Shown: positions 6,373 to 64,000 of the stretch, one piece after another
Numbering within the stretch: position 1 is the stretch's first letter
How the letters are laid out: the number at the start of each line of letters is the position of its first letter
Assembly (NCBI GenBank): GCA_964393485.1
Contig: CAYMTW010000003.1
Location: forward strand, 13,773 to 77,772
DNA from: an uncultured Melioribacter sp.
GTDB taxonomy: Bacteria; Bacteroidota; Ignavibacteria; Kapaibacteriales; Kapaibacteriaceae
Direction: 5' to 3'
Length of the DNA stretch: 64,000 bases
Notes under the pieces: generated by a model
What the model saw: the letters and a program-made list of their open reading frames with translations, nothing else
Database searches by the model: none
What the model was told of the DNA's origin: nothing
Program-made: the position numbers and the translations under genes

Positions 6373-6398
6373 GCGGCCGGAAACTACGATATTCGCAT

Positions 6399-7678: not shown

Positions 7679-7719
7679 CATCCCCTATTTTTGCTGCACC
7701 ATTATCACGAAAGACTCAC

Positions 7720-8370
7720 ATGCAGATCTATGTCGATAGCGCAAACCTCAAGGAAATCCAGCACGCCGCCGCGATGGGCTTCATTAGTGGTGTGACCACA
7801 AACCCGTCATTGCTGGCCAAGGAAGATCCATCGACGAACATCAGGGACCTGATCCTGAAGATCCACGAGTCCGTTGGTGGCCATACTAGCGTGGAAGTCA
7901 TCAGCACCGATACCGATGGCATGCTGCGCGAAGCCGATGAGATCCTGAAGTGGTTTCCCGATGCGACGATCAAGATACCGTTCATCCCGGCCGGACTGAC
8001 GGCCGTGCGCAAGCTCAGTGATCAGGACATTCCAACCAACGTCACGCTGCTTTTCACGGCAAATCAGGCCCTGATCGCTGCCAACGCTGGCGCTACCTAT
8101 GTGAGTCTGTTTATGGGACGTCTCGACGACATCGGCACAGACAGCCTCATCGCCCTACAGGACACCTGTGAGATCTGGGATGCTCAGGGTCTGGACGCGC
8201 AGATCATTGCCGCCTCGATCCGCACGCCGATCCACCTGCTCGAATGCGCCAAGGCCGGTGCGCACATCGCGACAGTCCCCTACAAGGTACTCATGCAGTC
8301 GATGAAGCATCCCCTTACCGACGCTGGACTCGAGGCATTCCTCAAGGATGCCGCTAAGCTCACGATGTAA
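7720..8370 (+). CDS. tal: Transaldolase / fructose-6-phosphate aldolase (short Tal/FSA subfamily)
   Basis: MQIYVDSANLKEIQHAAAMGFISGVTTNPSLL and DATIKIPFIPAGLTAV (Schiff-base Lys context). The ORF track begins at 7573. The in-frame ATG at 7720 gives the canonical N-terminus and removes the overlap with 6938..7678. Confidence 0.9.
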   Translation: MQIYVDSANLKEIQHAAAMGFISGVTTNPSLLAKEDPSTNIRDLILKIHESVGGHTSVEVISTDTDGMLREADEILKWFPDATIKIPFIPAGLTAVRKLSDQDIPTNVTLLFTANQALIAANAGATYVSLFMGRLDDIGTDSLIALQDTCEIWDAQGLDAQIIAASIRTPIHLLECAKAGAHIATVPYKVLMQSMKHPLTDAGLEAFLKDAAKLTM

Positions 8371-8879
8371 TGTCCATGAAAACCGTCATCATCACCACGG
8401 TCATGATCCTCATGACCCTGACGGCCATTGGCAGAACCAGCGACAGAGCCATCGGCAAGCAGGCCAGAGAATTCACGCTCCTCGACCAGTATGAAAAAGA
8501 ATGGTCGTGGTCAAAGAACTGGAAGGGACGCCCGACGATCATTGTGCTCAGTGACTGGAAAGGTAGCGACTACACAGCAGCCTGGACGGACCCACTCGTG
8601 GCACGTTTCAAGGACCGCGTGCAGTTCGTCGCCATGGCCGATGTATCGTTGGCTCCTGGCTTTCTCGAAGGCTATCTGCGGTCACGTTTTCGTGATGCCT
8701 ACAAGACGCCCATCCTTCTGGACTTTGAGGGCGATGTGTTCGAATACTATCAGTTTGTCTCGGGTACCCCCAACGTTCTCTTCATCGATGCCTCAGGCAC
8801 GGTGCGCCTGCACACCTGGGGCAAGGGGGCGAGTGAATCCGTGACAAAATTCGCCGATAACGTTCAGCAGCTTCTCTGA
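8370..8879 (+). CDS. Exported thioredoxin-fold (TlpA/AhpC-like) protein lacking any cysteine
   Basis: N-terminal signal/anchor MSMKTVIITTVMILMTLTAIG. FTLLDQYEKEWSW..GRPTIIVLSDW and VLFIDASGTVRLH resemble a redoxin fold. The 169-aa sequence contains no Cys. The start ATG shares one base with the upstream TAA. Confidence 0.45.
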   Translation: MSMKTVIITTVMILMTLTAIGRTSDRAIGKQAREFTLLDQYEKEWSWSKNWKGRPTIIVLSDWKGSDYTAAWTDPLVARFKDRVQFVAMADVSLAPGFLEGYLRSRFRDAYKTPILLDFEGDVFEYYQFVSGTPNVLFIDASGTVRLHTWGKGASESVTKFADNVQQLL

Positions 8880-46653: not shown

Positions 46654-46771
46654 TGATCAATGGCAGGTATGTGGAAAATACGCACCTGATGAGCTCCTCA
46701 ACGGAACTTGCCGTAGTTTGGTTCTCGTTTTGTTTCGCGCGATTGCGTCACACCCCATTACCGAAGCTCCC

Positions 46772-47722
46772 ATGGTCGCCCGTTTGCTCTTTTTTCTTGC
46801 CCTAGCAACCGTCACGGCCTCGGCCACCGACGTCACTCTGGTCCTGCAATCCATGCATGGAACGGAGCCATTTCGGCTTCAGACGGTCTATCCGGGCGTT
46901 CGGGCCGGATCATTCTACCGTCCTGAAATGCTTCGCTACTACATTTCCAAGATCACCATTCATCATGACGGGACAAAGTCGACCCCACTGCTCGACACCT
47001 ACCTACTGGTTGATGTGAAGGAAATGCAACGGTATTCTCTTGGAGACCTCGATGTCGGAACGGTGGACTCGATCACGTTTTACATCGGTGTTGACAAGGG
47101 CCGCAACCATCTGGACCCCACGACATATCCAGACTGGCACCCGCTTGCCCTCAAAACCCCATCAATGCATTGGGGTTGGACGGCTGGATATCGGTTTGTG
47201 ACCTACGAGGGCATGGCGGGAACCTCGGAGTCAAAGCTTACGGCTGGTTTTCAGATTCATACCCTTGACGATGCCCTCTACACCCGCGTCTCATGCCCGG
47301 TTTCGTCCAGCCGTTCGGTTGCAGGAGTCGAGATCCCAGTAAGGGCAGACTACAAGCGCCTACTGGACGCGATCGATGTGTCTAAGGGGCTCATCATGCA
47401 CGGCAGTACCGATGAAGCCATCACCCTAATGCGCAACATGGGCACGACGGTGTATACCCCCGGAACCACGACCTCGGTCGATGACTGCACGTCACACCGG
47501 GAGCTTGTGCATCCCAATCCCGCACGAGATATCGTGCAGCTTCCATCAAACGTGGTCGAAGCCCAAGTAATCGATGTTGCTGGCTCCAGCGTTCTCTCTG
47601 CGAGGGTGTCCGAGGGCTCTACGATGCTGTCTGTCAGCACGCTTGCCGTCGGCACGTACAGTGTTCTGCTCCGAAGCTCCGCCGGAGCTATCCGGTACCA
47701 AACGCTTGTCATTATCCGATAA
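46772..47722 (+). CDS. MbnP-like copper-binding protein carrying a T9SS CTD
   Basis: Start moved from 46457 to ATG 46772 (MVARLLFFLALATVTASA signal). MLRYYISKITIHHDG, ITFYIGVDKGRNHLDP and HPLALKTPSMHWGWTAGYRFVTYEG fit the MbnP pattern. C-terminal HPNPARDIVQL..VGTYSVLLRSSAGAIRYQTLVIIR is a CTD. Confidence 0.65.
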   Translation: MVARLLFFLALATVTASATDVTLVLQSMHGTEPFRLQTVYPGVRAGSFYRPEMLRYYISKITIHHDGTKSTPLLDTYLLVDVKEMQRYSLGDLDVGTVDSITFYIGVDKGRNHLDPTTYPDWHPLALKTPSMHWGWTAGYRFVTYEGMAGTSESKLTAGFQIHTLDDALYTRVSCPVSSSRSVAGVEIPVRADYKRLLDAIDVSKGLIMHGSTDEAITLMRNMGTTVYTPGTTTSVDDCTSHRELVHPNPARDIVQLPSNVVEAQVIDVAGSSVLSARVSEGSTMLSVSTLAVGTYSVLLRSSAGAIRYQTLVIIR

Positions 47723-48707
47723 ATACCGCCCGTGGCTTGCAGCCCTGGCCGTCCTTGTTCTTACGGCCTGTTCGGTTGAACCGCAGTCGAACATTGACCA
47801 GTACGATCTTGTCGATGTTCCGGCGGGATTTCCCGCACAGAACTTCCCTGCCGACAACGCACCAACTCCCGATCGTGTTGCCCTCGGAAAGCGCCTGTTC
47901 TTCGACTCCCGCATGTCGAATGGCAACGACGTCTCCTGTGCTACGTGTCACGACCCCGCCAAGGCCTTTACGGACGGCTTGCCAGCCTCGCTCGGCACCT
48001 TCGGGCGCACCGGCGTGCGCAATGCCCCTTCGCTTGCCAACGTGGGGTATCTGCCCTACCTGATGCGCGAAGGGGGCGTCCCTACGCTTGAGATGCAGAT
48101 CCTGGTGCCGATCCAGGAACACGCCGAGTTCGATCTTGAGGCCCCCGCCCTGGTGGCACGCCTGACGCTCGACTCATCACTTCAACAGATGAGCCGGACG
48201 GCTTACGGCCGGGCGCTGGACATCTGGGTGATCACCCGGGCGATCGCTTCGTTCGAACGGACACTTGTCAGCGGCCGTTCACGCGTCGATGAAGACCGTC
48301 TGTCGGATGCTGAACGTCGGGGTAGACAGGTTTTCCTGCGTTCGGGCTGCGTTACGTGTCACGGCGGGCCGTTCTACACGGACCACCGTTTTGCCTGCAA
48401 CGGACTTCTCGAATCTTATTCCGATAAGGGGCGGGCACGGCTCACCAACAAGGCATCCGACGAAGCCGTGTTCCGGGTTCCTTCACTTCGCAATGTTGGC
48501 CGCACAGCCCCCTACCTGCATAACGGTTCGATCGCTACCTTGCGCGAGGTGATCGATCGATACAGCCGCGGTGGATATCAGCATCCCAACAAAGACACCT
48601 CCATTGTCCCTCTGGGCCTGTCGGCTTTGGAGTGTTCAGATCTGGAGGCATTTTTGCTGGCCCTTACCGACGATCGATTCACCACCAATCCTCGGTTCCG
48701 ACCATGA
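47706..48707 (+). CDS. Di-haem cytochrome c peroxidase family (MbnH/MauG-like) lipoprotein, copy 1
   Basis: CATCHDP and CVTCHGG haem sites. FRVPSLRNVGRTAPYLHNGS. Lipobox-like AALAVLVLTAC. The ORF is open from 47574; TTG 47706 is the plausible start (17-nt overlap with the upstream gene). Confidence 0.8.
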   Translation: MSLSDKYRPWLAALAVLVLTACSVEPQSNIDQYDLVDVPAGFPAQNFPADNAPTPDRVALGKRLFFDSRMSNGNDVSCATCHDPAKAFTDGLPASLGTFGRTGVRNAPSLANVGYLPYLMREGGVPTLEMQILVPIQEHAEFDLEAPALVARLTLDSSLQQMSRTAYGRALDIWVITRAIASFERTLVSGRSRVDEDRLSDAERRGRQVFLRSGCVTCHGGPFYTDHRFACNGLLESYSDKGRARLTNKASDEAVFRVPSLRNVGRTAPYLHNGSIATLREVIDRYSRGGYQHPNKDTSIVPLGLSALECSDLEAFLLALTDDRFTTNPRFRP

Positions 48708-49774
48708 ACGTCCTCCGATCTGCCCTCATCATCGCCATCGTCTGCCTGGGAATTGGTTGTACCGATCCCGAGGTGCCGGTGTCGTTTGACGAGACCCCCT
48801 ACCCTCTTCGTTTCGAGGATCTGCCGGAGCCTATCCTGCCCATAGATTATCCGCTGACTCTTCAGCGTGTGAATCTTGGGCGTGCGCTGTTTCATGATGG
48901 TATGCTCTCGCGCACTGGCACACAAAGCTGCGCTACCTGCCACTCACAGGCAGCAGCATTCTCAGATAACCGCACCTATAGTATCGGTGTCCGAGGTCTG
49001 TCCGGCACACGTCAGGCCATGGCACTGATCAACCTCGCTTGGAGTGAACGAGGCTTTTTCTGGGACGGACGCTCTCCGACGCTTCGCGATCAGGCACTGC
49101 ATCCGATCGTAGATACTCTGGAAATGGACGATACGATGGAGAACGTGCTGAAGAAGCTTTCGGCATCAGCCCTCTACCGTAACATGTTCATCAAAGCCTT
49201 CGGATCCGACACTGTCACACCTGAGCGCATTGGTGTTGCTCTCGAACAGTTCATGCTCATTCTCGTTTCCGGTAAGAGTCGATACGACCGCGCCGTAGCG
49301 GGGTATGTCGCTCTATCCGAATCCGAGGAACGCGGACGTCAACTCTTCTCTCGGGAGTTCGACCCTACCTACAAGAAGAAAGGGGCGGAGTGCTTCCACT
49401 GTCATGCCGCTCCGTTCTTTACGAACGACCGCTTCATGAACAATGGCCTGGATGACGACGCTTCGTCCCGTGACATTGGCAGGGGGGGCTTTACGGGTCT
49501 CGCCTCGGACCGCGCCAAATTCCGCGTACCTACGCTGCGCAACATCGCCCGCACAGCCCCCTACATGCATGACGGACGCTTTAAGACACTAGAGGAAGTC
49601 GTTGAGTTTTACAACACCGGCGTACGCCGCTCCTCTACCGTGGACCCACTGATGCAATTCAACCTCGCTCCAGGCCTAAAACTCAACGACCAGGAAAAGG
49701 CCGACCTCGTGGCCTTCCTGCGCACCCTCACCGACGAACAGTTTCTGACGAATCCGGTGTATAGAATGCCGTGA
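48704..49774 (+). CDS. Di-haem cytochrome c peroxidase family (MbnH/MauG-like) lipoprotein, copy 2
   Basis: CATCHSQ and CFHCHAA. FRVPTLRNIARTAPYMHDGR. Lipobox IVCLGIGC. ATG 48704 overlaps the upstream TGA (ATGA). Confidence 0.85.
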   Translation: MNVLRSALIIAIVCLGIGCTDPEVPVSFDETPYPLRFEDLPEPILPIDYPLTLQRVNLGRALFHDGMLSRTGTQSCATCHSQAAAFSDNRTYSIGVRGLSGTRQAMALINLAWSERGFFWDGRSPTLRDQALHPIVDTLEMDDTMENVLKKLSASALYRNMFIKAFGSDTVTPERIGVALEQFMLILVSGKSRYDRAVAGYVALSESEERGRQLFSREFDPTYKKKGAECFHCHAAPFFTNDRFMNNGLDDDASSRDIGRGGFTGLASDRAKFRVPTLRNIARTAPYMHDGRFKTLEEVVEFYNTGVRRSSTVDPLMQFNLAPGLKLNDQEKADLVAFLRTLTDEQFLTNPVYRMP

Positions 49775-50750: not shown

Positions 50751-52010
50751 ATGCTGCTTCGAATCTTCATCCTTGTTGCATCGGTTTTGAGTGTCACCGC
50801 GCAGCCACTCTACTTCCCACCAATTTCAAACGATGCGTGGGAGCGACTATCTCGCACCGAGCTCGGGTGGTGTCAGGACAAGGTCGATTCACTCGTGGAG
50901 TTCGGCAGACGAACCGATACGAAGGCACTCATCATCCTTAAGGACGGCAAGATCGCTCTTGAAAAGTACTACGGAGCCTTCACCAAGGATAGCGCCTGGT
51001 ACTGGGCTTCAGCCGGAAAGACCGTTACGTCAGTCCTCGTTAGCATAGCCCAGAACGAGGACCTCATGGACATTACCAGGTCTAGCGCCACATACCTCGG
51101 TCGTGGCTGGTCATCGTGTAGCCCGCAGCAGGAAGACGCGATCACCGTGCGGCATCACCTGACGATGACGACGGGCATCGGATTCGACCGCAGCAATGAC
51201 AACTGCACCACACCGGATTGCCTGCGATACCGAGCCGAGCCGGGCACGATCTGGGATTACCACAACGCCTGCTATCTGCTTCTTCAGGACATGATAGAAA
51301 GGGCCTCCGGTAAGACGTATCAGCAATACTACACACAGCAACTGTCTTTGAAGCTGGGTATGGGTGGCGTGTGGTTCAATGGAGTTCTCTACTCTAAGCC
51401 CCTTGCCATGGCCCGCTTTGGTTTGATGCTTCTGGCAGGGGGCGTCTGGAACGGCGACACCATCGTAAAGGATCGTGAATACTTCGATGCCATGATGAAC
51501 ACATCACAGCAGCTGAACAAGTCGTATGGTTACCTGTTCTGGCTCAATGGCAAAGGGAGCTACATGCAGCCCGGTATCTCAATCGTCTGGCCGACCGATC
51601 TTGTTCCGTCAGCACCGAAGGATATGTATGCAGGTATGGGCAAGAATGACCAACGCGTATACATCGTACCGAGCCAGCGCATGGTTGTCGTCCGTATGGG
51701 CAACCCCGGCGACTCTTCTGCGCCAGCGATCAGCGGCTATGATGATGCCCTATGGCAACGAATAAACGCCCTGCCGTGCAACACCAGCGTCAGCAATGAA
51801 CAACAATCAGAAATCAACATCTGGCCGAATCCAGCAACAACATTCGTCTCGTATCTCGGAGAGTCTGCTATCCTGTACGATGTTCTCGGCAATGAGGTGC
51901 AGCACTCTGGCACGTCAACAATGGATGTTTCATCTCTCGCAGCCGGCACATATCGCGTGGTTGTGACACATGGAGCATCGCGAGCAGGCTCGCCGCTGAT
52001 CATCCGGTGA
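50751..52010 (+). CDS. Beta-lactamase-fold serine hydrolase (class C / PBP-like) with T9SS CTD
   Basis: Signal peptide. SxxK in YWASAGKTVTSVLV. CTD INIWPNPATTFVSY..AGTYRVVVTHGASRAGSPLIIR. Confidence 0.75.
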   Translation: MLLRIFILVASVLSVTAQPLYFPPISNDAWERLSRTELGWCQDKVDSLVEFGRRTDTKALIILKDGKIALEKYYGAFTKDSAWYWASAGKTVTSVLVSIAQNEDLMDITRSSATYLGRGWSSCSPQQEDAITVRHHLTMTTGIGFDRSNDNCTTPDCLRYRAEPGTIWDYHNACYLLLQDMIERASGKTYQQYYTQQLSLKLGMGGVWFNGVLYSKPLAMARFGLMLLAGGVWNGDTIVKDREYFDAMMNTSQQLNKSYGYLFWLNGKGSYMQPGISIVWPTDLVPSAPKDMYAGMGKNDQRVYIVPSQRMVVVRMGNPGDSSAPAISGYDDALWQRINALPCNTSVSNEQQSEINIWPNPATTFVSYLGESAILYDVLGNEVQHSGTSTMDVSSLAAGTYRVVVTHGASRAGSPLIIR

Positions 52011-52974: not shown

Positions 52975-53616
52975 ATGAGATCGAATATTCTACTTGCAGT
53001 TGCGCTTCTTTGCGTGACCTCGTCTGCTCTAGCAGTCGAAATCAGTGTCGGACCGGCTCTCGGCGTCAAAGGGTCTGTGAACACCGTTAATCCGGGTACC
53101 GGGCTCAAGACGGGCTTCGCTTTTAATTCGATGCCGGACCTTGGGGTGACTTCGCGCTTGATGTTCTCCAAGGACATGAACATCGGTCTTTTGCTTGATA
53201 TAGAGTCGACAGGATACGGATACATTATGCGTCCGGAGAACGAGGACTTCGCTACCGATGCCAACACCTACATCTCCCGCCATAGCTATATCAACATCGC
53301 TCCGTCGTTCTACCTCGGGGGCCTTACACTGGGCCTGGGGATCTTGTTGCCAACGGGTCTGACCAATAAGTCTGTAGATGGTCAGGATGAACTCTATCTG
53401 AGCGGTACTCAAGCATCCCCTGTCCTCGAAGCACGCCTTGGAGCGATGATTCCGCTGGTCCGGAGCTTTTCCGGAGATCTGAATCTGATCATCCGCGGAA
53501 CCTACATGCTGGGCGGACACTTTACACAGGATGTGCGTTACGTAATCAATTCCAGCAACCCTCAAAGTGCCGGTCTATCGCTCGGATTGAACTACTTGTT
53601 CACCGTTGTGAGGTAA
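52975..53616 (+). CDS. Small outer-membrane beta-barrel protein
   Basis: Signal peptide MRSNILLAVALLCVTSSALA, then ~190 aa of alternating-polarity strands. A clean terminator follows. Confidence 0.45.
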   Translation: MRSNILLAVALLCVTSSALAVEISVGPALGVKGSVNTVNPGTGLKTGFAFNSMPDLGVTSRLMFSKDMNIGLLLDIESTGYGYIMRPENEDFATDANTYISRHSYINIAPSFYLGGLTLGLGILLPTGLTNKSVDGQDELYLSGTQASPVLEARLGAMIPLVRSFSGDLNLIIRGTYMLGGHFTQDVRYVINSSNPQSAGLSLGLNYLFTVVR

Positions 53617-53782: not shown

Positions 53783-54454
53783 ATGCTATCCATCATTGCG
53801 GCAATGATCCTTGTGAGCTACGGGGAGATACCCTTGGCGGCAGATGTCACAATCTCTGCTAGCACATGGCTTGACGCTTCGCGCTTCCGACCCGACCCAC
53901 CGCTGGATCGGGATCACATTCTGTTGCATCTGAATGACCTTCGTGGGCGACCACGAGTCTGGCGGAGCTTTGTTGATTCGGTCATTCTGCTGTGGGAGGA
54001 TGGACAGCCGCCCCGGATGCTTCAGCATCTCCTTGGAACAGAAGGGTATTCATTATTGGCGGAGGTTCGCAGATATCTGGATACCGTTACACCAGCACCA
54101 CCTCTTCGGCACCGGGACTGTCTTGAACAGGTTGCGGCAAACCACGCAATGGATGTTGCCAAGTACCCGAATGGGCATCCACACAGAGGTTCAAACGGCG
54201 CAACACTAACGCAGCGCGTAACGTCAAAATGTAGGGACCTACAGTCATTCGGAGAGTGTGTCGATCATCTGAGTTCGTGCGCATCAACAATAGTGCTACG
54301 CCTGCTCTTCGATCCCGACGTGCCGGGCCGCGGACATCGGGCAACACTGCTTGATCCCAACTACCGAGTTGTTGGCATTGGGGGAGCCCCCTGCCAAAAC
54401 CATCCTATCCTCGGAAGCGGCTACGTCGTTGTCCTCACGTTTGCCAACCAATGA
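53783..54454 (+). CDS. Secreted CAP/SCP/PR-1-like domain protein
   Basis: Hydrophobic N-terminus. The C-terminal half (AANHAMDVAKY..HRGSNG..GECV..GRGHRATLLDPNYRVVGIGG) resembles the CAP domain. Confidence 0.45.
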   Translation: MLSIIAAMILVSYGEIPLAADVTISASTWLDASRFRPDPPLDRDHILLHLNDLRGRPRVWRSFVDSVILLWEDGQPPRMLQHLLGTEGYSLLAEVRRYLDTVTPAPPLRHRDCLEQVAANHAMDVAKYPNGHPHRGSNGATLTQRVTSKCRDLQSFGECVDHLSSCASTIVLRLLFDPDVPGRGHRATLLDPNYRVVGIGGAPCQNHPILGSGYVVVLTFANQ

Positions 54455-54463
54455 AGATGAGGA

Positions 54464-56617
54464 CTATCGAACTTTGGCTGTCGCACTAAGCACAGACTCT
54501 GCACCCGACGTGCAAACGACCTTGATCGCATAGACGTCGTCTCTGCGTCCGCCAGAAACATCGATGTACTCACGACGAGATGCATCCTTGACAAGAGCAT
54601 AGGCCTGCAAACCTGAGGCAGTTCGCTTATAGACCACGAAGCTGTGCGGCTCATCAAGAGTTTCATACGACCAGCGCAGAGTGACGTTCTTTGATGTAGA
54701 ATCATAGGATGCCGACAAGGCGCGGACGGTCGGACGCATCATGTTGTCGACGCGCGTGATACTGACGATGTTCGAAAGGGGCGACTTGTTACCTGCACTA
54801 TCGTAGGCAATAACAGCGTACTGGTATGTGCGTGCGCGTGACGGCGAACGGTCCGTGAAAACACTGTCACGCCGACCAGCCCGGCTGAGAGAATCCCATG
54901 CGATGCGATCCGGATTAGCTGCATCAAGAAGACGTCGAAGCACAACGTGGTTGCGGACATCCCGACTTGAACTTGGAACGATATCGAGGTCGATCGTTGA
55001 ATCCGACACAGAGTAATCACGGATCACTGGTGCAACCGGCGGAATAATGTCCGGACGCGGCACAACGAGTGTATTGCTCACTGACGACTCGTTGTAGTGA
55101 TAGTCCAGAGCAACAACCTGGTAGTATGCATTCTTCGTTAACGTCCGCACCGTTAGCGTGTCAATAATGATCGTGTCATTACGGCTGAACATGGAGTCTT
55201 CATTGAACAGGTCGCGTCGGACCGTGAACTCATGAGAGGGATCATTCGCATGCAGCAGGCGGTATCCCATTAGATCGCGATCAGCTGGATGTTGTACGAC
55301 GATACGCACTACGCCGTTGGTATCCATTGTTCCCTTGACGAGCACACCCGGACTTGGGGGTACACTATCAGCAAAGGCCACATAGGCAGGAAATGACCGT
55401 ACAAGATTGCGTGCCGTATCAACGGCCACGACCTGATAGTAGTAAGTTCCACCAAGAATCACATTCTTGTCTCGATACTCCCGAACCCCCTTATCAAGGG
55501 GCTTATCAACGATTGGGCGATCGAATGTTCCATCAACAGCTGTGTCGCGCATGATCAGAAAGCCAAACAGGTCAGAGCTAACGGGCTCGGTCATCTCCCA
55601 CGTGATCACAACATCACGTATGCCTTCGTGCAGAGCTTTAACGGCTATAGGCATTGCAGGGGGCGTAAGGTCACGCGGCATAGCCTTAAGAATGCCGATC
55701 ACATCTGTTTCGGCAAAGGAGTTGTTGCCCACGATCTTGTAGAAGTAGGTCGTGTAGTTTGTCAGATTCGAGTCGAGATAACTACTTGTGGCGGGAGCAA
55801 CGCCATTTCGTAGAGTGAGCATCGGAGACGCTGTGAGCTTTTCATACGACAGGCCATCAACTGATCGATAGACATCATACGTTGAGTGTCCAGTTGAGTT
55901 GTTCCACTTTATAAGTGCAGACCGATCCAATTCGTCAACCGATAGACCAGCATTTTCCATCGATACAACCTTCGGCTCTGGTCCAACATCCACAGTCCCT
56001 GATTCTACGATATATGGCTTCGTGTCACCCAACAGGGTAACGCGATACCGGTAGGCCACGCCCGCACGAGCAGTCTTGTCGACAAAGCGCATGCCAAGCC
56101 CCGTAGCAGCATCAACATTGCGTTCAGCGGCCAGCATGGCCATGCTATAGGTCATTTCAAACTTGCTGCGAGCTTCACGTAGAGCATCAAGTTGACCCGG
56201 GTCGTTGGTCGGATAATCTGCTGGGTCCATTGACGGATCAGACAGCAGTGCTGCAACAACGATCGGACCCATCACGTTCATGTCTTCACTCTTGAGTGCA
56301 GCAGCGTACTGGTCCCACTGCGCTGGCGTCCATGGCGTAACAGGGGCATCGACAAGAGCTGCAAATGCACCAGCCTGCGAGCCGCGAAGCTCGGCGCGTT
56401 CGATTCGATAGCCAGACGTCTTGGATTTCACCCACAGTGCCGATGTACTGGGTGCCCAGCGAATGACAACTGAGTCGGCATATCGCTTTGCGATAGCACC
56501 GACACGGTGCTCAAGCGCACGATCGAGTTCTTTTGTCGTTTGTCCGAAGCTCGTGACATGGACGATGCTCAATGCGATCGCGAACGTCAGGAACGACTTC
56601 ATCGTGGTGGTCTTCAT
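54464..56617 (-). CDS. 717-aa secreted protein with six FN3-like modules
   Basis: Start at M19 (MKTTTMKSFLTFAIALSIVHVTSFGQ); the ORF is open to 56671. The six modules end YRYRVTLLG, YFYKIVGNN, YYYQVVAVDTARN, YYQVVALDYHYNES, YQYAVIAYDSAGNKS, VYAIKVVCTSGAES. Confidence 0.7.
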   Translation of the reverse strand: MKTTTMKSFLTFAIALSIVHVTSFGQTTKELDRALEHRVGAIAKRYADSVVIRWAPSTSALWVKSKTSGYRIERAELRGSQAGAFAALVDAPVTPWTPAQWDQYAAALKSEDMNVMGPIVVAALLSDPSMDPADYPTNDPGQLDALREARSKFEMTYSMAMLAAERNVDAATGLGMRFVDKTARAGVAYRYRVTLLGDTKPYIVESGTVDVGPEPKVVSMENAGLSVDELDRSALIKWNNSTGHSTYDVYRSVDGLSYEKLTASPMLTLRNGVAPATSSYLDSNLTNYTTYFYKIVGNNSFAETDVIGILKAMPRDLTPPAMPIAVKALHEGIRDVVITWEMTEPVSSDLFGFLIMRDTAVDGTFDRPIVDKPLDKGVREYRDKNVILGGTYYYQVVAVDTARNLVRSFPAYVAFADSVPPSPGVLVKGTMDTNGVVRIVVQHPADRDLMGYRLLHANDPSHEFTVRRDLFNEDSMFSRNDTIIIDTLTVRTLTKNAYYQVVALDYHYNESSVSNTLVVPRPDIIPPVAPVIRDYSVSDSTIDLDIVPSSSRDVRNHVVLRRLLDAANPDRIAWDSLSRAGRRDSVFTDRSPSRARTYQYAVIAYDSAGNKSPLSNIVSITRVDNMMRPTVRALSASYDSTSKNVTLRWSYETLDEPHSFVVYKRTASGLQAYALVKDASRREYIDVSGGRRDDVYAIKVVCTSGAESVLSATAKVR

Positions 56618-56642
56618 CTTGATGGTCCTTCGATCGTTGTGA

Positions 56643-59600
56643 TCACTTGTTGGTTTTAACGTTCTTGCCATTATTCAGCACAGCCGTGATGTCGATTGGC
56701 GTTGAGAAATTCTGCACCACCGTTTGCTTTACATCCTGATTCGTAGCCCGATCCTTTGCCACGATCCAGTTCCCGCTCACGAGCTCCCAGAGTGTTCCAA
56801 CGACTGTCACGCGATAGATCTTTGATAGATCCCAGTCGGCCGTCGATGAAATGAAGTTCTCGGTCCCGCTGTTGTCAAAGCTGAAGTTGTCACTCTCGCT
56901 CGGTGCCGGTGCCGGCTTCTCGGGGTCAAGGACAAATGTGCCTTTAGGCTTACTTGGAGTTGCAACTCCCACCGTTGGCGAACTTGGCGGAGGCGTCGGC
57001 GGCTGCACCACAACGGCCGTGTACTGTATGCCTCCGATGGTGATGCCGGATGGGGAGGGAGCTGGAGTCGTACCCTTGCCCGTCGAATACGCGGCACCTG
57101 TGGTGCCTGCCCCCTTCACCGTTGACGCAGGAGTTGTTGTGGACGTGATAACGATAGACTTCTTCTTGCGGAAAAGATTAGCACCGAGAGCATCCTTTGT
57201 CGATTGCAGTGTCAGCGACTTCCAGGTTGCACCATCCTTCTCTTCAATGCCAACCGTGTAGGTCACTTGGAACGTTCTGTTCACCGTGTTGCCCGACGCA
57301 CCACCTGTCATCTCCTGAAGTTCAAAGCTCTGACCTGGTGCGAAGTTGTAGATGACCGATACCGGTTCTTTCACCGAGACATTGTTGGCGGGGGCCGTTG
57401 GCGAGATGGACTTGATCAGCTGATTCTTTTGCTCTGCGGCAACATCTTGAACTGCCGTTGTGGTTGCAGCCGGCGCGGCCGGATAGCATGTTGACCCCAT
57501 GTTAAAGTCGACATCAAAACTACCCTCGATCGCACCACTCAGGAAGCTGAACGATCCGGCTGCCTGACCCTGGACCCATGACGGATTCGGGAAGCCAGCC
57601 TGTGCCCATGCTCCGGCCTTCAGGCTAGCCAGGTTCCAATAGCAGCCATCCTTGCACGGCCAACTACCCTCCGTCACTTGGATGCCGCACGAAGCGATCG
57701 CCCAAGCTGCCGCATTGGCACGGAAATACCACATGTTGTAACCGTTCTGACCGCACAGCGTGCCATCGGGATACCGCAGGAATGAAGCATTGAACTCCAT
57801 ACCACCACCAAAACGCCACTTTACCTTCACCCTACCGAACAGGCTCTTGAGACGGTCACCCGTATCAAAGCCCATGTCAGTGCCACCAGCAAATCCGTTG
57901 CCGGCGATTGCATCGGACGTCGCAGAAACACTTGGAGACATTCCATAGCAACCGACCGCGGCCAGACCATTATTTGTGCGCGTCGTAAAGCCAGACGGCG
58001 GGGCAATATTCTTGCCGAACATGAAGTATGAGTTCGCGCTGATGTTCGTGCCAAAGACATTGACATTTACAACGTTTCGATACACGGGATCACCAAGCTT
58101 TACCCACCATATTCCGGTCTTGCCTTCTATGTGGATGTTCAGATTGGCATTGCCTGTAACGGGAGCCTTGTTGACAATGACACCGGCATTGAGATCAAAG
58201 ATCTTGGTCGTGAAGTCGTACACGATATTGAGTGTACCCTTGACTGGCGCGTTAGCGCGCTCTGTGAGTTTGGCCTGGAGCCACAGATCTCCCGAGAGTC
58301 CGATGTAGCTCATGCCCCCTGATGAATTGAACTGACCGAATAGAGCGACATCGCCGTTCATTTTCTTTGAGTCCGGCGTTGTCCCAAGAATAGCCAACGC
58401 CCTGAATCCAAAAGCCACGTTCCGGTCGGGCGTCATCACTGCTCCGCTATTGGCCGAAGAGGAGGTTGAACCCGCTGCTGCGACAGCATTGATGTTCGGC
58501 TGAGCCGGCAGCATGTTCACGTTCACCTTTCTCCACGCAGCTACGCCGAAGCCATAGAACGCATATCCTGGTAGGAACACAATTCCAGGAGGGGGCAGAA
58601 TGGCCTTTGCACTGACATACCAGTAGCGGTACCGTACGTTGTTATCCACTTTCGAACCGAACCGGGCAGCGGCATCAAGCTGCATCTGCAGCTCCTTGAA
58701 CTTCGCCGTGATCGTGGCATAGAATCCATTACCATAGGTCGGGTCTGAATTATAGAAATTCAGTTCACCATTCATCTGTACGGCCGGCAGATTCGCAAAC
58801 ACAACGATCTTGCCTACGTTGAAATCGACGAACTTCGGCTTGAATGAGAAGTTTGATGTCGGGTTGGTCTTCTCAACTGCTCCGATAACTTCAAAAGAGC
58901 CCCTTCCACCGATACGATTGGAATCGAGGGCAACGACAACATCAAATCCAAGCTTCCCACGGAAGAGCTCATTGCCCTGCGGCGTAGCTTGATCGAACTT
59001 TACCTTATCGATCGTTATCGGGAACTTGGCCAGCTTCTTCTGCGGGCTGGCAAAGCTCCAATCACCGGCCTCGTATCCGAATGGTTTCTGGAGCGAGTCA
59101 TCATAGAACATCCGCATGTTCTCAAACTCTGGAGACAAGTCGAGAGTGATTGTCTTTGACCCAATGGTGAGTGTTGCATCGTTCCATCCTGCTTCGCCAT
59201 TGAGGTTTATCAGGAACTGTTTCCGGCCCTTCTTCAGGGTCATGGTGAGCGTCGATGTAGGGGCGATCGTCAGCTTCGCATTGCCGAAGAGCTTCATCTC
59301 AATCTCGTTTTGAGGCTGCATCGAGAAATTGAAGGTCTTTTCGGTATGATTGAACAATGCCTTATACCAGATGGCATTTTGGGGGGTTGAATCCGATACC
59401 GGCAGCAATAGTCGGCCGCGTATGTATGCCTGCGTGAGGGTGTTGTTCAACATATCAACTCGAACCGTGTCGACACTTCCTCCAAGTCGATTCAGATTCA
59501 TCTTCGGGAACATCACAACATTTGCGGCAATAAGCTTGCCCGTAAAACCGTTCTTGTTGATGATCAGGTCTTGCGCGATGAATTGCGGTGCTGCGTTCGA

Positions 59601-61679
59601 ATCAGCAAATGTTCGCCATCCGTCGGGCATGAACATTTTGATCTGCTTGGCATAGAAGCCATTGAACGTGGCATCCTGGATTCCCACGTAATTCGCGGGG
59701 AAGGTCATCCCGGGGGCATTCTCCAGATCACTGAAATCAAAGGTCATCGTGTCGATCTGCAGACCCATGCCATTGGTTCCGGCAAACGTGCTCGGCGTCA
59801 GATTGCCGAGTAGCATCCACTCCTTCCAGTCGATCGTCTTGCCACGGAGTGTTGCGATCGACTGTTTCGTGGTATCAATATCCGGACGTGGGGTCATCCA
59901 TGCACGGGGGAACATGATGTCGATATCGAGCGACATCGTATCGGAGTTATTGTCGCAGCCCCATGTTACATAGCAACCCGGACGGGTAGCCGTCTTCGCC
60001 TTGGCAGCTATCGTAAACGTTGGCTGACCGGATGTTACTCCTCGTACGTCGATGTCCTGAAGCAATTCCAGACGTCCGGATTTACCCACACCCTGAGGAC
60101 AGATCGGTAGTTGCTTCAGACCGAAACTCAAGGTGTCGTCCAGCTTGGCAAGGGGGAGCGTTGCTACCGAAGCCATGACGGCCTCGGTTGGCATAAACTT
60201 CATCTCCGAGATACAGATCGTGTAACCCTTGAGATTGTTGAAGCCAAGGGGCAGTTTGAGCGGCGTATTGAGGCTGTTGACCTGCTTGACGAGGGCACCG
60301 TTGGCTTTAACCCATTGATCAACGGCGGCAACGGTGTTCTTAACCCAATTCCAGCTTGTAACCTGGTTTATGGCCCATTGCTGCGGATATGGCGGTGCGG
60401 ATGGATCTACTTCACCGCTCACCTGACCAGATACCACCCGACGGGCACTGTTCACGACAACTTCGTCGAACACGACTTGAACTCGCGCGAGAAGCCATGG
60501 AATAACGATCTCGCCCTTCCCCGATGCACTTGCCGACGACGCATTTGTAATGGCCGTTACCTTCATCATGAACTTGCCGACAGCAAGGGAATCGTTAACG
60601 GCCACTGGCTGCGTACCTGCGATCGTATCTGTTAGAACAACGGCTGCTCCACACGTTCCGCAAGGCAGTCCGGGAGGATTAGGATCCACCGTTGTTTCGA
60701 CCTCTTGATTTCCAGCACCAGTAGATTTTGTCTTGTTCCCCGACCCCGAGTCTTCACCACCGCCGGACTTCTTTGCCAGGGTCGTATCGCCACCCGTTGA
60801 TGTCGTACCCTCGTCAGTGGTCTTTGTCTTCTGTTGCGTAGCTATGAAGGTGAACGGTGTTGCGTAACCGTCGGGTTCTCCAACGGGACTACCCCGTTCG
60901 TCGGTTGCTCGTACCGACCAGATGTATTGCTGTCCTGGGCGAGGGAGCTCGTAGTCTGGGGGCCACAGGAGCTGTGATGCGGTCACATTCTGCTGGTCTA
61001 GTATAGGCTTGTTCACACGAAACGCGTTGATCGGCGTCTGGCCCTTGAGAACTTCGAACACTTGAACGCGGTACGAGACCGGGAAGTCCGGTCGTGGCGC
61101 AACAGGCGTCCAGCGGAGCATCGGGCGGTTCAGTGCTGAGATCTCACCCTTGTCGATCGGGAGTAGGAGTATTGGTGCCTGATAGCTCTTCATGGTGAAT
61201 GTTCGGCATACGGGCTCCGAAATAACGGCATTGGTCGTTGGATGAAGAAGTCCAACGCAGAACTCGTAAAAGCCTGCCGGCAGCATTCCAGTTCGAACAG
61301 CGGTCTGGTCCGCACCACCGGCAACACTCATTGATTCGAGTGGAATGAGGTCTTCACCGAAGAACTGGCTTATTCCCACGGGAATCGTGAGCACGGCCAT
61401 TTTCTCCGGCTTGGTCTTAGCCAGATAGGACCCATCTTTGTTCACTCGACAGTCAAACTTCGCCTGAACTTCAGAGCCGGTTGAATTCGTAATCGTAACA
61501 ACAACCGCATCCTTTCGCTGCGCCCAGTTGGACAGGTAAGGCTCTGGACGCGAACTGATGTTGACACTTACCCGAAGCTGCGCGTGTGCCGTCATGAGCC
61601 CCAACAGGAGAAGCACGATGGAGGCGGAAAGGTGGCGTGACAAAGTTCTCATGGGATTGTTCCTGTAGTTCGCGGTCAT
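56643..61679 (-). CDS. 1678-aa secreted giant protein, family unknown, no T9SS CTD
   Basis: Signal peptide (..IVLLLLGLMTAHA|Q; alternative start M10 at 61652). Two N-terminal beta-sandwich modules. A T/G/S/K linker (aa ~281-335). A ~1150-aa beta-rich core. A P/T linker (aa ~1514-1596). A ~80-aa C-terminal domain ending VLNNGKNVKTNK. Confidence 0.75.
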   Translation of the reverse strand: MTANYRNNPMRTLSRHLSASIVLLLLGLMTAHAQLRVSVNISSRPEPYLSNWAQRKDAVVVTITNSTGSEVQAKFDCRVNKDGSYLAKTKPEKMAVLTIPVGISQFFGEDLIPLESMSVAGGADQTAVRTGMLPAGFYEFCVGLLHPTTNAVISEPVCRTFTMKSYQAPILLLPIDKGEISALNRPMLRWTPVAPRPDFPVSYRVQVFEVLKGQTPINAFRVNKPILDQQNVTASQLLWPPDYELPRPGQQYIWSVRATDERGSPVGEPDGYATPFTFIATQQKTKTTDEGTTSTGGDTTLAKKSGGGEDSGSGNKTKSTGAGNQEVETTVDPNPPGLPCGTCGAAVVLTDTIAGTQPVAVNDSLAVGKFMMKVTAITNASSASASGKGEIVIPWLLARVQVVFDEVVVNSARRVVSGQVSGEVDPSAPPYPQQWAINQVTSWNWVKNTVAAVDQWVKANGALVKQVNSLNTPLKLPLGFNNLKGYTICISEMKFMPTEAVMASVATLPLAKLDDTLSFGLKQLPICPQGVGKSGRLELLQDIDVRGVTSGQPTFTIAAKAKTATRPGCYVTWGCDNNSDTMSLDIDIMFPRAWMTPRPDIDTTKQSIATLRGKTIDWKEWMLLGNLTPSTFAGTNGMGLQIDTMTFDFSDLENAPGMTFPANYVGIQDATFNGFYAKQIKMFMPDGWRTFADSNAAPQFIAQDLIINKNGFTGKLIAANVVMFPKMNLNRLGGSVDTVRVDMLNNTLTQAYIRGRLLLPVSDSTPQNAIWYKALFNHTEKTFNFSMQPQNEIEMKLFGNAKLTIAPTSTLTMTLKKGRKQFLINLNGEAGWNDATLTIGSKTITLDLSPEFENMRMFYDDSLQKPFGYEAGDWSFASPQKKLAKFPITIDKVKFDQATPQGNELFRGKLGFDVVVALDSNRIGGRGSFEVIGAVEKTNPTSNFSFKPKFVDFNVGKIVVFANLPAVQMNGELNFYNSDPTYGNGFYATITAKFKELQMQLDAAARFGSKVDNNVRYRYWYVSAKAILPPPGIVFLPGYAFYGFGVAAWRKVNVNMLPAQPNINAVAAAGSTSSSANSGAVMTPDRNVAFGFRALAILGTTPDSKKMNGDVALFGQFNSSGGMSYIGLSGDLWLQAKLTERANAPVKGTLNIVYDFTTKIFDLNAGVIVNKAPVTGNANLNIHIEGKTGIWWVKLGDPVYRNVVNVNVFGTNISANSYFMFGKNIAPPSGFTTRTNNGLAAVGCYGMSPSVSATSDAIAGNGFAGGTDMGFDTGDRLKSLFGRVKVKWRFGGGMEFNASFLRYPDGTLCGQNGYNMWYFRANAAAWAIASCGIQVTEGSWPCKDGCYWNLASLKAGAWAQAGFPNPSWVQGQAAGSFSFLSGAIEGSFDVDFNMGSTCYPAAPAATTTAVQDVAAEQKNQLIKSISPTAPANNVSVKEPVSVIYNFAPGQSFELQEMTGGASGNTVNRTFQVTYTVGIEEKDGATWKSLTLQSTKDALGANLFRKKKSIVITSTTTPASTVKGAGTTGAAYSTGKGTTPAPSPSGITIGGIQYTAVVVQPPTPPPSSPTVGVATPSKPKGTFVLDPEKPAPAPSESDNFSFDNSGTENFISSTADWDLSKIYRVTVVGTLWELVSGNWIVAKDRATNQDVKQTVVQNFSTPIDITAVLNNGKNVKTNK

Positions 61680-61681
61680 GT

Positions 61682-63481
61682 TCAGAACGTGGTATTCACC
61701 GATAGTTGCAGCGTTTGTTCGGTGAACCCGGTACCTTTTGTGGTGACAGTACCGTAGGTGTATGAGCTTACGCCGTAATTCGCAATTAACGTGAGACTCT
61801 TGGTTGTCCGCCAGCGCAGGCCCCCTCGAAGGAATCTCTGGGTATCCGATGGGTTCGCACCAAACGTTGAATTCGCCACTGTGATCGAAAGCGTAGGGAT
61901 GAGCTGTCCACCAAGGAGTCGATACGAAGCGTTGACCCCATAGGATTGGACCTTTAAAACACCGGCCGTGAGCGTGTTTTGCACTTGGCTGGTATTTGCG
62001 CCGATCGTTAGCGGCACAGCTTCAACCACGCCCGTGTAGGCAAGCATAGCACTTCGCGTATTGTTGGATGATTCAACACCACTGACAACGTTGAAGTCAT
62101 CAAATCGATCGATGCCTACGCTAGCCGTTAGAGTGTGAATCACCGATGCGGCCGTAAAGGTTATCATGGGGTCGATACTAAACGACTCGCTCACATTCTG
62201 GATACGCTGCGAGTCGAGTGGGTTCTGTCGGTTGTTTCTCATTCCGAAGTTTGAGTAGGACGAAGACAGCGAGATTGCATCCGAGAACTGCACCGTCATC
62301 TGACCATTGGCAATGGTCTGCATCATCGCCTCGCCCTTCGTTTCCGAAAGGTTGTTCACCCGTTGTCCAATCGTTCCCGAAAGCGTGAAGTCGCCATTAA
62401 AGAGATTGAGCATCGGAGATACTTTGAGGTCAAGCCGATCTGTCTGTATGAACGGATAAGCAAGGGGCTGAAAGCCAGCGCCCATATACAGTCCGGATAC
62501 AGTAACACCCCACGTTGAATACCGCATACTGAGACTGGCACTGCCGGCACCGTCTATTCGAGTTGATGTTCGAGCGTCCAAGAGAAACGAAAGGGGGTTG
62601 TTTACCGGATCGACGAGGTTCGACCTCTGATCACGGGTGAAGATGGAAAGGGCCCCTTCTGCACTAAATGTCAGCGCCTGTCCCAGATTGATCTTCGTAT
62701 TGATGGATGCGATGGCTCCTTCTTCGGCGCGGAGCCTAAGCGTATCAGATGGAATGATGACGCTCGGATCGTCCTCAGCCGGACGTGACGGCAGAATTGA
62801 CGTAATGGTATTGCCTATCGATGTTGGGTCATCCTTGGCGTACACTACGTTGAGGCCCACCGACATTGAGTCCGGGTTACCAAACGCAATCCGCGCCATC
62901 GTCATATCCCTACGGTATGCTCCGGCAATGTTTCGCTCAGCGTTCGGTTCTACAGCCCGTTGACTTATCCCGCGCGAGGCTGACACCTGAACGCTTCCAG
63001 GGGTCAGATCGAAGCCTGCACCAAAGATCTGCAGGTCGCCCCCTGAGAGCTCCGACATTTGCGGAGTGTAGGAACCGAGATGCAGTTGAGCCCATCCGAT
63101 CTTCGGTGAAAAGCTCGATAGACCAAGCGCATTGGCTGGATTGGCAAAGAGCTCTGCCAGTGAAGGGGCTGTAATGGCGGGCGTCGTGGTGTTGGTTTCG
63201 GGGTAGGTGATCATCAACGTCAAGGGCAATGACAGCACTCCAGCGATGTTGATCGTCGGCGTAAAGACCAGCCGGTGCAGAGCAGCGGGACGCCGTCCTA
63301 CTTGAGAGCCAGCTGGGTTCGAGCTGTGCTCATAGAAATCCGACGATACCGAAGCGGCACCTGTTACTGTTATCCATGGTGAGGACGCAGAAGAATCGCC
63401 CGACTCTTCTTCCTGCGCCAGTGCGGCAACGCTGCTGCCCACCAGAATGGCCACAGACAAGAGCCTGAGTACTATCCGCAT
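61682..63481 (-). CDS. 600-aa outer-membrane beta-barrel protein, family unknown
   Basis: Start moved from 63751 to M91 (cat 63479..63481): MRIVLRLLSVAILVGSSVAALAQ signal. Alternating strands run throughout. The C-terminus LQLSVNTTF ends in an aromatic residue. The stop lies 2 nt before the next gene's ATG. Confidence 0.65.
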   Translation of the reverse strand: MRIVLRLLSVAILVGSSVAALAQEEESGDSSASSPWITVTGAASVSSDFYEHSSNPAGSQVGRRPAALHRLVFTPTINIAGVLSLPLTLMITYPETNTTTPAITAPSLAELFANPANALGLSSFSPKIGWAQLHLGSYTPQMSELSGGDLQIFGAGFDLTPGSVQVSASRGISQRAVEPNAERNIAGAYRRDMTMARIAFGNPDSMSVGLNVVYAKDDPTSIGNTITSILPSRPAEDDPSVIIPSDTLRLRAEEGAIASINTKINLGQALTFSAEGALSIFTRDQRSNLVDPVNNPLSFLLDARTSTRIDGAGSASLSMRYSTWGVTVSGLYMGAGFQPLAYPFIQTDRLDLKVSPMLNLFNGDFTLSGTIGQRVNNLSETKGEAMMQTIANGQMTVQFSDAISLSSSYSNFGMRNNRQNPLDSQRIQNVSESFSIDPMITFTAASVIHTLTASVGIDRFDDFNVVSGVESSNNTRSAMLAYTGVVEAVPLTIGANTSQVQNTLTAGVLKVQSYGVNASYRLLGGQLIPTLSITVANSTFGANPSDTQRFLRGGLRWRTTKSLTLIANYGVSSYTYGTVTTKGTGFTEQTLQLSVNTTF

Positions 63482-63554
63482 TTTTACCCCTAGAAACACC
63501 CCTGGCCGAAAATAGGGCAGTACGCGTGCTTTCCAAGTATTCTGCTCGTTACGA

Positions 63555-64000
63555 CTACGAAAGCCGCAGTCCGGCGTCAAGCAGGGTGTTGACCATCTCC
63601 ATGGAAGGGGCTTCTGCGTAAAAGCGGACAAGCGGCTCCGTGCCGGAGGCCCGGATAAGCAGCCAGCCGTCCTTGACGTAGAACTTGAACCCGTCGCGCG
63701 TATCGATCCGCTCCACCGGATACGTTCCGATCGTGGTCGGCTTCTTGGCACAGGCAGCCAGGATGGCCTGCTTTACCTCGTTGGTCACGTGAACATCACG
63801 GCGACGGTAGCGATGCGGGCCAAACTCCTCGTCGAGCTCGTCACAGAGCTGCTTAAGCGACTTCTTTGTGGTGGCCATCATCTCAAGAAGCAGCAGGCCG
63901 TTAAAGATGCCATCACGCTCAGGAATATGGAGTGACGTGCCGAGTCCACCGGACTCCTCGCCCCCTATCAGGATCTTTTCCTCGTTCATCAGCTTGGCCA
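63555..64000 (-). CDS. Alpha-D-phosphohexomutase (phosphoglucomutase/phosphomannomutase family), C-terminal part; 5' end beyond the window
   Basis: GGEESGG sugar-binding loop and IRASGTEPLVRFYAEA phosphate-binding loop. The reading frame stays open to the window edge. Confidence 0.85.
   Translation of the reverse strand, partial: AKLMNEEKILIGGEESGGLGTSLHIPERDGIFNGLLLLEMMATTKKSLKQLCDELDEEFGPHRYRRRDVHVTNEVKQAILAACAKKPTTIGTYPVERIDTRDGFKFYVKDGWLLIRASGTEPLVRFYAEAPSMEMVNTLLDAGLRLS

Follow-up and report, generated by a model that had tools for sequence, protein, structure and literature searches.

A plugless 26-strand outer-membrane barrel is encoded beside a conserved Sec-exported module: a candidate envelope system for variable surface cargo in Bacteroidota and relatives

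We analysed a stretch of 64,000 nucleotides from an uncultured Melioribacter sp. of the Kapaibacteriaceae (assembly GCA_964393485.1, contig CAYMTW010000003.1, positions 13,773 to 77,772), in the following called the window, and in particular a block of three genes that lie head to tail on its reverse strand. From 5' to 3', these genes encode a large outer-membrane beta-barrel, a giant secreted protein that starts with a conserved N-terminal module (N-mod), and a protein with an array of fibronectin type III (FN3)-like modules (Table 1). The three packed open reading frames (ORFs) with their Sec signals are present just as an earlier preliminary description of this DNA had them. All three products are exported by Sec: they carry signals of the signal peptidase I type with a glutamine at position +1 (ALA/Q23, AHA/Q34 and SFG/Q26 for barrel, giant and FN3 protein, respectively; the slash marks the cleavage site), and this glutamine fits the 'Q-rule' of Bacteroidetes as it is outlined in PMC5837995.

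The start of the barrel gene is ATG 63481, which opens a clear signal peptide and yields the length common to the homologues. A start at GTG 63751 (ORF 61682..63751) was rejected, as the additional 270 nt overlap the 3' end of a phosphoglucomutase-like gene (63555..63989); the Arg/Ser/Pro-rich 5' extension is an ORF-calling artefact. The preliminary description had placed only 2 nt between barrel stop and giant, and this distance is correct when counted from ATG 61679. More probably, however, the giant starts at ATG 61652 (M10, MRTLSRHLS...), because M10 is nearly invariant in an alignment of 31 sequences and P0001, a database protein of 100% identity, has the 1669 amino acids (aa) that an M10 start would give; with this start, 29 nt would separate the two genes. 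For the FN3 gene, the start is 56617, 25 nt past the giant stop; this start had been proposed before and is backed by the homologues, almost all of which have 717 aa, including the 100%-identical P0126. The region 5' of the barrel gene is presumed to be the promoter region of the block, because no other non-coding gap of such size occurs within it. It contains TATTTTCG, with one mismatch to the Bacteroidetes -7 motif TAnnTTTG, and a promoter scan of the region found no sigma-70-type site. Inside the block, scans for sigma-70 promoters and terminators gave results at or below chance, and the lack of any promoter- or terminator-like excess would be compatible with a single transcript.

Table 1. 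Features of the three-gene block (coordinates of the window)
Feature	Coordinates	Strand	Description
Intergenic region 5' of barrel gene	63482..63554	(-)	73 nt; no other non-coding gap this large in the block; presumed promoter region
Barrel gene	61682..63481	(-)	599 aa; signal peptide 1-22 = 63416..63481; strands 37-598; Phe599
Giant gene	56643..61679	(-)	predicted length ~1669-1678 aa
Giant signal peptide	61581..61652	(-)	from M10: MRTLSRHLSASIVLLLLGLMTAHA/Q; A-x-A/Q site conserved family-wide
N-mod domain 1	61188..61580	(-)	giant residues 34-164; invariant Trp52, Asn65 and Cys141/Cys158 pair
N-mod domain 2	60825..61187	(-)	giant residues 165-285; Ig/FN3-like beta-sandwich (weak profile matches)
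Linker 1	60645..60824	(-)	giant residues 286-345; low-complexity, G/T/S/K-rich
Giant core	57480..60644	(-)	giant residues ~346-1400; non-repetitive all-beta meander, long hairpins, several conserved Cys
Giant C-terminal part	56646..57479	(-)	beta module 1401-1500; linker 2 1501-1610; domain 1611-1678
FN3-array gene	54464..56617	(-)	717 aa; signal peptide 1-25 = 56543..56617; Gln26 at +1; six FN3-like modules
FN3 module 1 insert	56084..56341	(-)	residues ~93-178; about 80-85 aa; conserved family-wide

An AlphaFold2 model of the barrel, built on an alignment of 46 sequences, has 26 antiparallel strands (predicted local distance difference test, pLDDT, 81) and lacks a plug, POTRA, TPR, N-terminal or periplasmic domain, in agreement with the large barrel without POTRA, plug or TPR part that had been read from the sequence. 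On one side of the model the strands are connected by 12 short turns of 2-6 aa, on the other side by long loops of up to 36 aa. The C-terminal Phe is invariant among homologues and the protein contains no Cys at all. With a Sec signal, an even strand number, a turn/loop asymmetry and a C-terminal aromatic residue, the protein has the generic characteristics of outer-membrane beta-barrels. A Foldseek search of the Protein Data Bank (PDB) returned 294 chains at E<=1e-3, and among the matches listed 50 of 50 are outer-membrane barrels: the top match is MtrB (6r2q_B, E 3.4e-11, TMq 0.50, 11% identity), which may stem from the strand number alone, followed by SlpA, TonB-dependent transporters and the usher FimD; PapC, OccK, OprD and Omp32 are also among them. 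By sequence, the barrel matches no known family: Pfam and NCBIfam gave nothing at E<=1 for the window barrel and 46 family members scanned singly, and the barrel profile found no match to PDB sequences. Conservation is as high in the loops as in the strands (2.83 bits each) and lower in the turns (2.38 bits), which is unusual for exposed loops and expected if the loops contact a conserved partner.

The giant is composed of two N-terminal modules, two low-complexity linkers and a beta-rich core, a make-up that had been proposed earlier and is found here as well. The two N-terminal modules together are the N-mod, and they occur far beyond the giant family: giant residues ~21-278 share 43-61% identity with the N-termini of proteins that are otherwise unrelated to the giant. 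A HMMER scan of 1.84 billion cluster representatives found N-mod in 2,937 representatives at E<=1e-3 and in 217 with the stricter limit of E<=1e-30. The module is nearly always located at residues ~10-280 of proteins that range from 220 to 2,848 aa, and its conserved mature sequence begins straight after the A-x-A/Q site. The sequence behind it is freely exchanged or absent. N-mod alone (~285-335 aa, typically ~295 aa) is the commonest form and the one at most metagenome loci, while in other proteins it is followed by PKD, CarboxypepD_reg, SdrD_B, SusE-like or Lcl_C (lectin-like) domains, all typical of surface proteins, and in some relatives by tandem repeats of its own domain 2 type. The giant core is present in 25 of the 143 best representatives matching the family hidden Markov models (HMMs). 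When 16 N-mod sequences were scanned singly against Pfam and NCBIfam, nothing reached the threshold and only weak Ig/FN3-type matches were seen; one sub-threshold Pfam match is to Ig_Rha78A_N (E 0.0075). A search with the N-mod profile against PDB sequences gave no match.

Homologues of the barrel, giant and FN3 protein fall into 69, 56 and 69 clusters, respectively, almost all 'hypothetical' and from metagenome-assembled genomes (MAGs) of Kapabacteria, Ignavibacteria or Bacteroidota; apart from 'hypothetical protein', the only cluster name is a single 'carboxypeptidase-like regulatory domain' label. The homology of all three genes across the compared loci was confirmed with BLAST and HMMs. 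The trio is found together in relatives at 56%, 33%, 25% and 22% identity; its carriers are MAGs of Kapabacteria and Ignavibacteria, one unclassified MAG (L004), one unbinned metagenome contig (L005) and the cultured Runella sp. SP2. Conservation of the trio, a question raised by the preliminary description, thus extends to ~20-25% identity, Runella included, but the unit that is actually conserved is smaller: it is the pair of barrel and N-mod, and the trio is one subfamily of a larger system.

The evidence for this pair comes from two surveys. A barrel-based scan of 185,579 genomes, one per species, returned 42 loci, and according to tblastn and HMMs in all 41 informative ones an N-mod gene adjoins the barrel gene, 38 times directly downstream and three times, in Bacteroidia MAGs, directly upstream. 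A metagenome scan that started from N-mod returned 80 loci, 65 of them with enough upstream sequence, and in 65/65 the end of a barrel ORF lies no more than ~100 nt upstream of the N-mod gene; 12 of these 65 were scored by coordinates, as the automatic label had taken a second, distant N-mod copy. In total, barrel and N-mod are adjacent at 106/106 informative loci, and their genetic pairing is near certain. One locus (L003) encodes a single protein of 1,031 aa that joins N-mod-like domains to a barrel, and five loci have two N-mod genes per barrel. Carriers of the pair are Kapabacteria, Ignavibacteria and other Bacteroidota; a Gemmatimonadota MAG is among the outliers. Seven contigs with close homologues of the Kapabacteria/Ignavibacteria-type locus are labelled as Patescibacteria, Chitinophaga pinensis, Desulfobulbaceae, Chromatiales, Hyphomicrobiales, Armatimonadota and Alphaproteobacteria, probably through wrong binning or labelling of MAG contigs. 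The idea that the barrel is an ordinary porin, co-transcribed by chance with unrelated secreted proteins, could draw on the porins OccK, OprD and Omp32 among its fold matches, but it is effectively refuted by an adjacency that holds at 106/106 loci, at identities down to ~20-30%, in both gene orders and in a fused form.

At these loci N-mod is always encoded beside a barrel of the family, and this supports the earlier suggestion of a dedicated barrel with its own cargo, two-partner-like and without an Omp85 transporter. We regard it as moderately probable that the barrel and N-mod are joined in an obligate complex of the outer membrane, which would serve as anchor, and probably as exporter, for variable cargo at the C-terminus. 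The block would then be one elaborated member of a widespread two-protein outer-membrane module. Its first component would be the 26-strand barrel, which itself has neither plug nor periplasmic domain, and its second component a Sec-exported partner with N-mod (~250 aa, two domains) right behind the cleaved signal peptide. N-mod would be in direct contact with the barrel and occupy or cap its open lumen, a position modelled on that of LptE in LptD and of MtrA in MtrB. MtrB and LptD are known 26-strand barrels and both sheath a separately encoded partner; by standard barrel geometry, a barrel of 26 strands is wide enough for an Ig-sized domain. C-terminal cargo fused to N-mod would be held at the cell surface, probably after being threaded out, and in the window this cargo would be an extension of 1,400 aa whose all-beta core is novel. 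The extension would emerge at the surface; its domain types in paralogues are those of adhesins and stalks, and its role may be adhesin- or coat-like.

The high number of N-mod proteins without any extension also fits a different function, namely a gated channel or uptake complex, in which the barrel provides the pore, N-mod the plug or lid (as in LptD/LptE or SusC/SusD) and extensions, where present, capture substrates to be imported or released. A barrel with a bare ~295-aa N-mod does resemble a channel with its plug, a plugless 26-strand barrel needs occlusion, one relative has a SusE-like domain and TonB-dependent transporters are among the fold matches of the barrel. Nevertheless, we consider this function unlikely: there is no TonB box and no plug domain, Pfam gives no TonB-dependent-receptor, SusD or LptD signal, transport or catabolic genes are not consistently adjacent, and the extensions are dominated by repeats of the stalk and adhesin type. 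The mature N-terminus of N-mod, highly conserved from +1, together with the implied Ig-like domains, is reminiscent of yet another kind of assembly: N-mod proteins could polymerise, with this N-terminus as donor strand, on an usher-like platform for a fibre or pilus. The ushers FimD and PapC are among the fold matches of the barrel and several N-mod genes accompany one barrel at some loci, but the barrel has none of the plug, N-terminal and C-terminal domains of ushers, there is no Usher or PapD profile match and no conserved gene for a periplasmic chaperone, and most loci have a single N-mod gene. We rate a fibre platform as highly improbable.

The giant core offers few clues by comparison. 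AlphaFold2 predicts residues 340-1500 to be all-beta (pLDDT 77, predicted template modelling score 0.42). In Foldseek searches of PDB and BFVD, every match of the core has a TM-score (TM) <= 0.17; these low-score matches are to outer-membrane barrels, LptD, ApoB100, MTP-type amphipathic sheets and phage fibres, and were judged non-informative. Pfam and NCBIfam gave nothing significant for the giant, and its profile matched among PDB sequences only Huntingtin, which is low-complexity noise. That neither the barrel nor the giant belongs to a known family had been suspected from the start, and Pfam, NCBIfam and PDB-sequence searches have not placed the proteins in characterised families with a joint function. 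We treat the core as having no identified structural or sequence relative beyond its own family. A comparison of even/odd hydrophobicity between core strands and barrel strands did not discriminate between a membrane sheet and a soluble sheet. The giant's sole CXXC pair (C340/C343) is followed by Gly, linker 2 (1501-1610) is T/P/S-rich, and in the C-terminal domain of ~70 aa W1638, F1658 and T1660 are conserved.

A long beta-meander with fold matches to LptD, ApoB100, MTP-type amphipathic sheets and outer-membrane barrels could also be an amphipathic groove, tethered via N-mod to the barrel, and the block could thus encode a periplasm-spanning or lipid-handling bridge; an AsmA/TamB-like bridge was the second possibility named in the preliminary description. 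This has become very unlikely. All of these fold matches are at TM <= 0.17 and no TamB-like structure is among those listed for the core; AsmA/TamB/DUF490 and LptD/OstA profiles do not match, and the N-terminus has a cleavable A-x-A/Q signal rather than a membrane anchor. Furthermore, bridging cannot be the general role of the system, because N-mod carries unrelated extensions or none. A more far-reaching version of the anchoring complex is that barrel and N-mod are an unrecognised outer-membrane export and display system, functionally a new type of secretion system, with the giant as one threaded cargo that has a new all-beta fold; we consider this possible and put it forward tentatively.

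Several observations weigh against an anchoring and exporting complex. The barrel and amphipathic-sheet matches of the core, low as their scores are (TM <= 0.17), allow for a membrane- or lipid-associated core rather than a displayed adhesin. The evidence for the beta-sandwich nature of N-mod consists of sub-threshold Ig/FN3 matches, and both N-mod domain types are also found as internal repeats in a few relatives, so that docking is not their exclusive purpose. Threading would predict a disordered linker behind N-mod; such a linker is not enriched across the family and is common only among close relatives. The identities of barrel and N-mod to their window copies co-vary (r = 0.96, n = 47 loci), which speaks in favour of the complex but could reflect shared descent alone. 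Finally, in Pedobacter sp. R20-19 (JCKI01000005.1; locus L051, 3462..19180) core and N-mod are in separate genes: a giant core protein of 1,508 aa adjoins a protein of 1,059 aa with N-mod and FN3 domains, and profile HMMs found no family barrel within the 19 kb. An FN3-array homologue lies ~6 kb downstream, past a run of small unannotated genes that gave no Pfam matches in support of a toxin/immunity idea. This cultured strain has a version of the locus that is rearranged or decayed.

The third protein of the block would not be part of the basic machine. Its family profile matches the FN3 arrays of titin, RPTP (RPTP-delta) and contactin over residues ~171-710 (E down to 2.7e-19), and six motifs of the Y-x-Y-x-V type, four found by pattern search and two by eye, are spaced by ~100 aa; these data bear out the six FN3-like modules described earlier, including the conserved insert in module 1, which plausibly interrupts an FN3 fold. 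Pfam and NCBIfam found only generic FN3 similarity; the Pfam fn3 threshold is reached by homologues while the window protein stays below it. The protein has a single Cys. Among 31 loci that carry the giant core and extend sufficiently downstream, its gene is located 3' of the core in 30, all but the Pedobacter locus; the gene is also found behind some CarboxypepD_reg cargos and is absent from minimal pairs of barrel and N-mod. The gene is thus tied to certain cargo types and not to the barrel, and its product could be a cargo-specific accessory, perhaps a stalk, a scaffold or a partner of the giant core.

The organism employs its type IX secretion system (T9SS) to secrete other proteins, as shown by two products encoded near the block: a beta-lactamase-family protein with a Por_Secre_tail (50751..52010 (+)) and a reprolysin-like M12B metalloprotease of 999 aa that contains SprB/Ig repeats (43654..46653 (-)). 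In Pfam searches at E<=1, no T9SS C-terminal domain was detected in the giant or the FN3 protein. Since T9SS cargo is encoded nearby but these two proteins lack the domain, another route or anchor is needed for them.

Among the remaining neighbours in the window, an MbnP-like protein with a T9SS sorting domain is followed by two overlapping genes for di-haem cytochrome c peroxidases (MauG/MbnH-like; 46457..49774 (+)); this appears to be an MbnP/MbnH-type pair with MbnP as T9SS cargo. The region 37142..40936 (-) encodes a protein of 1,264 aa with a lectin-like Laminin_G_3 and a PNGase F C-terminal domain. Two further genes near the block are not conserved beside the trio in other genomes: 52975..53616 (+) encodes a signal-peptide protein of 213 aa with alternating polarity, a C-terminal aromatic residue and no Pfam match, which may, judged from these features, be a small outer-membrane barrel, and 53783..54454 (+) encodes a CAP/SCP-domain protein, convergent with the FN3 gene stop at a gap of 9 nt. 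No regulator is encoded beside the trio in the window. In other genomes regulators recur beside loci with barrel and N-mod: TPR-HisKA_3 kinases with GerE response regulators (two loci), TPR+GerE proteins, TPR-guanylate cyclases and AAA_16/BTAD proteins (one locus each), and Y_Y_Y or Reg_prop sensor kinases with LytTR or GerE regulators (three loci).

Further variation was seen among the loci themselves. Minimal pairs are often preceded by a second N-mod-like protein of ~585-735 aa encoded ~5 kb upstream (nine loci), and in one of these (L110, 31..8804, with the minimal pair at 6091..7935 and 7944..8804) the gene between the two N-mod genes encodes a protein of ~1,400 aa with DUF11 and SdrD_B stalk domains; minimal pair and upstream gene may form a larger conserved type of locus. 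The two distant trios of the unclassified MAG (L004, 19149..26993) and of the unbinned contig (L005, 5455..8266) are flanked by a Por_Secre_tail protein of ~160 aa and by large unannotated proteins, and in the former three consecutive PTL_trimer/Peptidase_S74 proteins (tail-fibre-like, self-cleaving chaperone) also follow the trio. At one locus (L023, 6415..11387) two ORFs, one for N-mod and one for the core, take the place of the giant, and at three metagenome loci (L103, L113 and L129) the barrel is divided over two ORFs; these are either pseudogenes or assembly/frameshift errors.

To our knowledge, little is known about how proteins are placed on the surface in Bacteroidota and their relatives besides T9SS and lipoprotein export, and we know of no indication that classical type V systems are common in these organisms. 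A strictly paired, unannotated module with thousands of sequence clusters and a minimal form of a ~600-aa barrel and a ~295-aa partner is a candidate for a new envelope machine. If this is correct, 26-strand barrels that possibly need a partner would gain a third example besides LptDE and MtrAB, and the module would provide a natural scaffold for surface display. Names and a rationale would also become available for three large families of 'hypothetical proteins'. Runella sp. SP2 is cultured and has the full trio (CP031030.1, at about 6.67-6.69 Mb), and therefore experiments are possible.

Full-text literature searches found no description of an equivalent system of barrel and N-mod. We rate the pair as new as a system with an inferred function; profile-profile or AFDB comparisons might still link one of its parts to a known superfamily. 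By fold, the barrel comes closest to MtrB of MtrCAB (6r2q), also a plugless 26-strand barrel that functions only as the sheath of a partner; its operon has three genes, and the third component is exposed on the surface. There is, however, no sequence similarity (11% identity) and no MtrB_PioB profile match, and a Mtr-like haem wire was rejected, as inspection of the Cys positions found no CXXCH in either partner. LptD likewise is a 26-strand barrel with its lumen filled by a separately encoded partner of ~170-300 aa, but the family described here has no LptD/OstA profile match and no N-terminal beta-jellyroll. Moreover, LptE is a lipoprotein, whereas the N-mod partner carries a site for signal peptidase I and lacks a lipobox Cys, and both the multiple paralogues per genome and the variable extensions argue against a role in lipopolysaccharide insertion.

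Systems with large surface proteins or large beta-rich partners share other aspects. Inverse autotransporters (intimin/invasin) have an N-terminal anchor and a C-terminal passenger of Ig-like repeats, an arrangement also approached by the fused form of L003, yet their anchor is a 12-strand barrel with LysM in the same polypeptide, while here the barrel is separate, has 26 strands and does not match IAT_beta. T9SS type-B cargo with PorP/SprF-like anchors, such as SprB/SprF, is found in the same phylum-level neighbourhood and likewise has a giant surface protein encoded beside its own anchoring barrel. PorP/SprF proteins have about 300 aa. SprB-type cargo relies on a C-terminal signal and T9SS export; here, the conserved module is N-terminal, no C-terminal domain is detectable, and the barrel has 26 strands and does not match PorP_SprF. 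T9SS-cargo identity was rejected for both the giant and the FN3 protein, with no match to the C-terminal domains Por_Secre_tail or CHU_C at E<=1. TamA/TamB and AsmA-like systems likewise have, within one operon, a barrel and a beta-rich partner of very large size, but the block has no Omp85 barrel and no DUF490/AsmA signal, its giant has a cleavable signal peptide, and the body of the partner is interchangeable or absent. The usher of chaperone-usher systems is a 24-strand barrel with plug, N-terminal and C-terminal domains that works with a PapD-like chaperone, and the barrel has none of these domains.

The closest parallel in organisation is two-partner secretion (FhaC/FHA, CdiB/CdiA). There, too, a dedicated barrel gene adjoins the cargo gene, a Sec signal opens the cargo and is followed by a conserved N-module of ~250 aa and a variable, often giant, beta-rich body, and several paralogous systems can occur per genome. 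The parts differ: TpsB is a 16-strand Omp85 barrel with two POTRAs, in contrast to 26 strands and no POTRA here, and Bac_surface_Ag, ShlB and POTRA_2 match neither the window barrel nor the 46 family members. The secretion (TPS) domain of two-partner cargo is beta-helical, while N-mod resembles tandem beta-sandwiches (weak Ig/FN3-type matches), and Haemagg_act, the profile of the TPS domain, does not match the giant or the 16 N-mod sequences. Many partners here also consist of N-mod alone, with nothing to secrete. Barrel and N-mod are thus not homologous to the parts of two-partner systems or inverse autotransporters and are alike in logic only, and the functional logic of two-partner secretion is found here: adjacent genes (41/41 and 65/65), a conserved N-module and a variable body.

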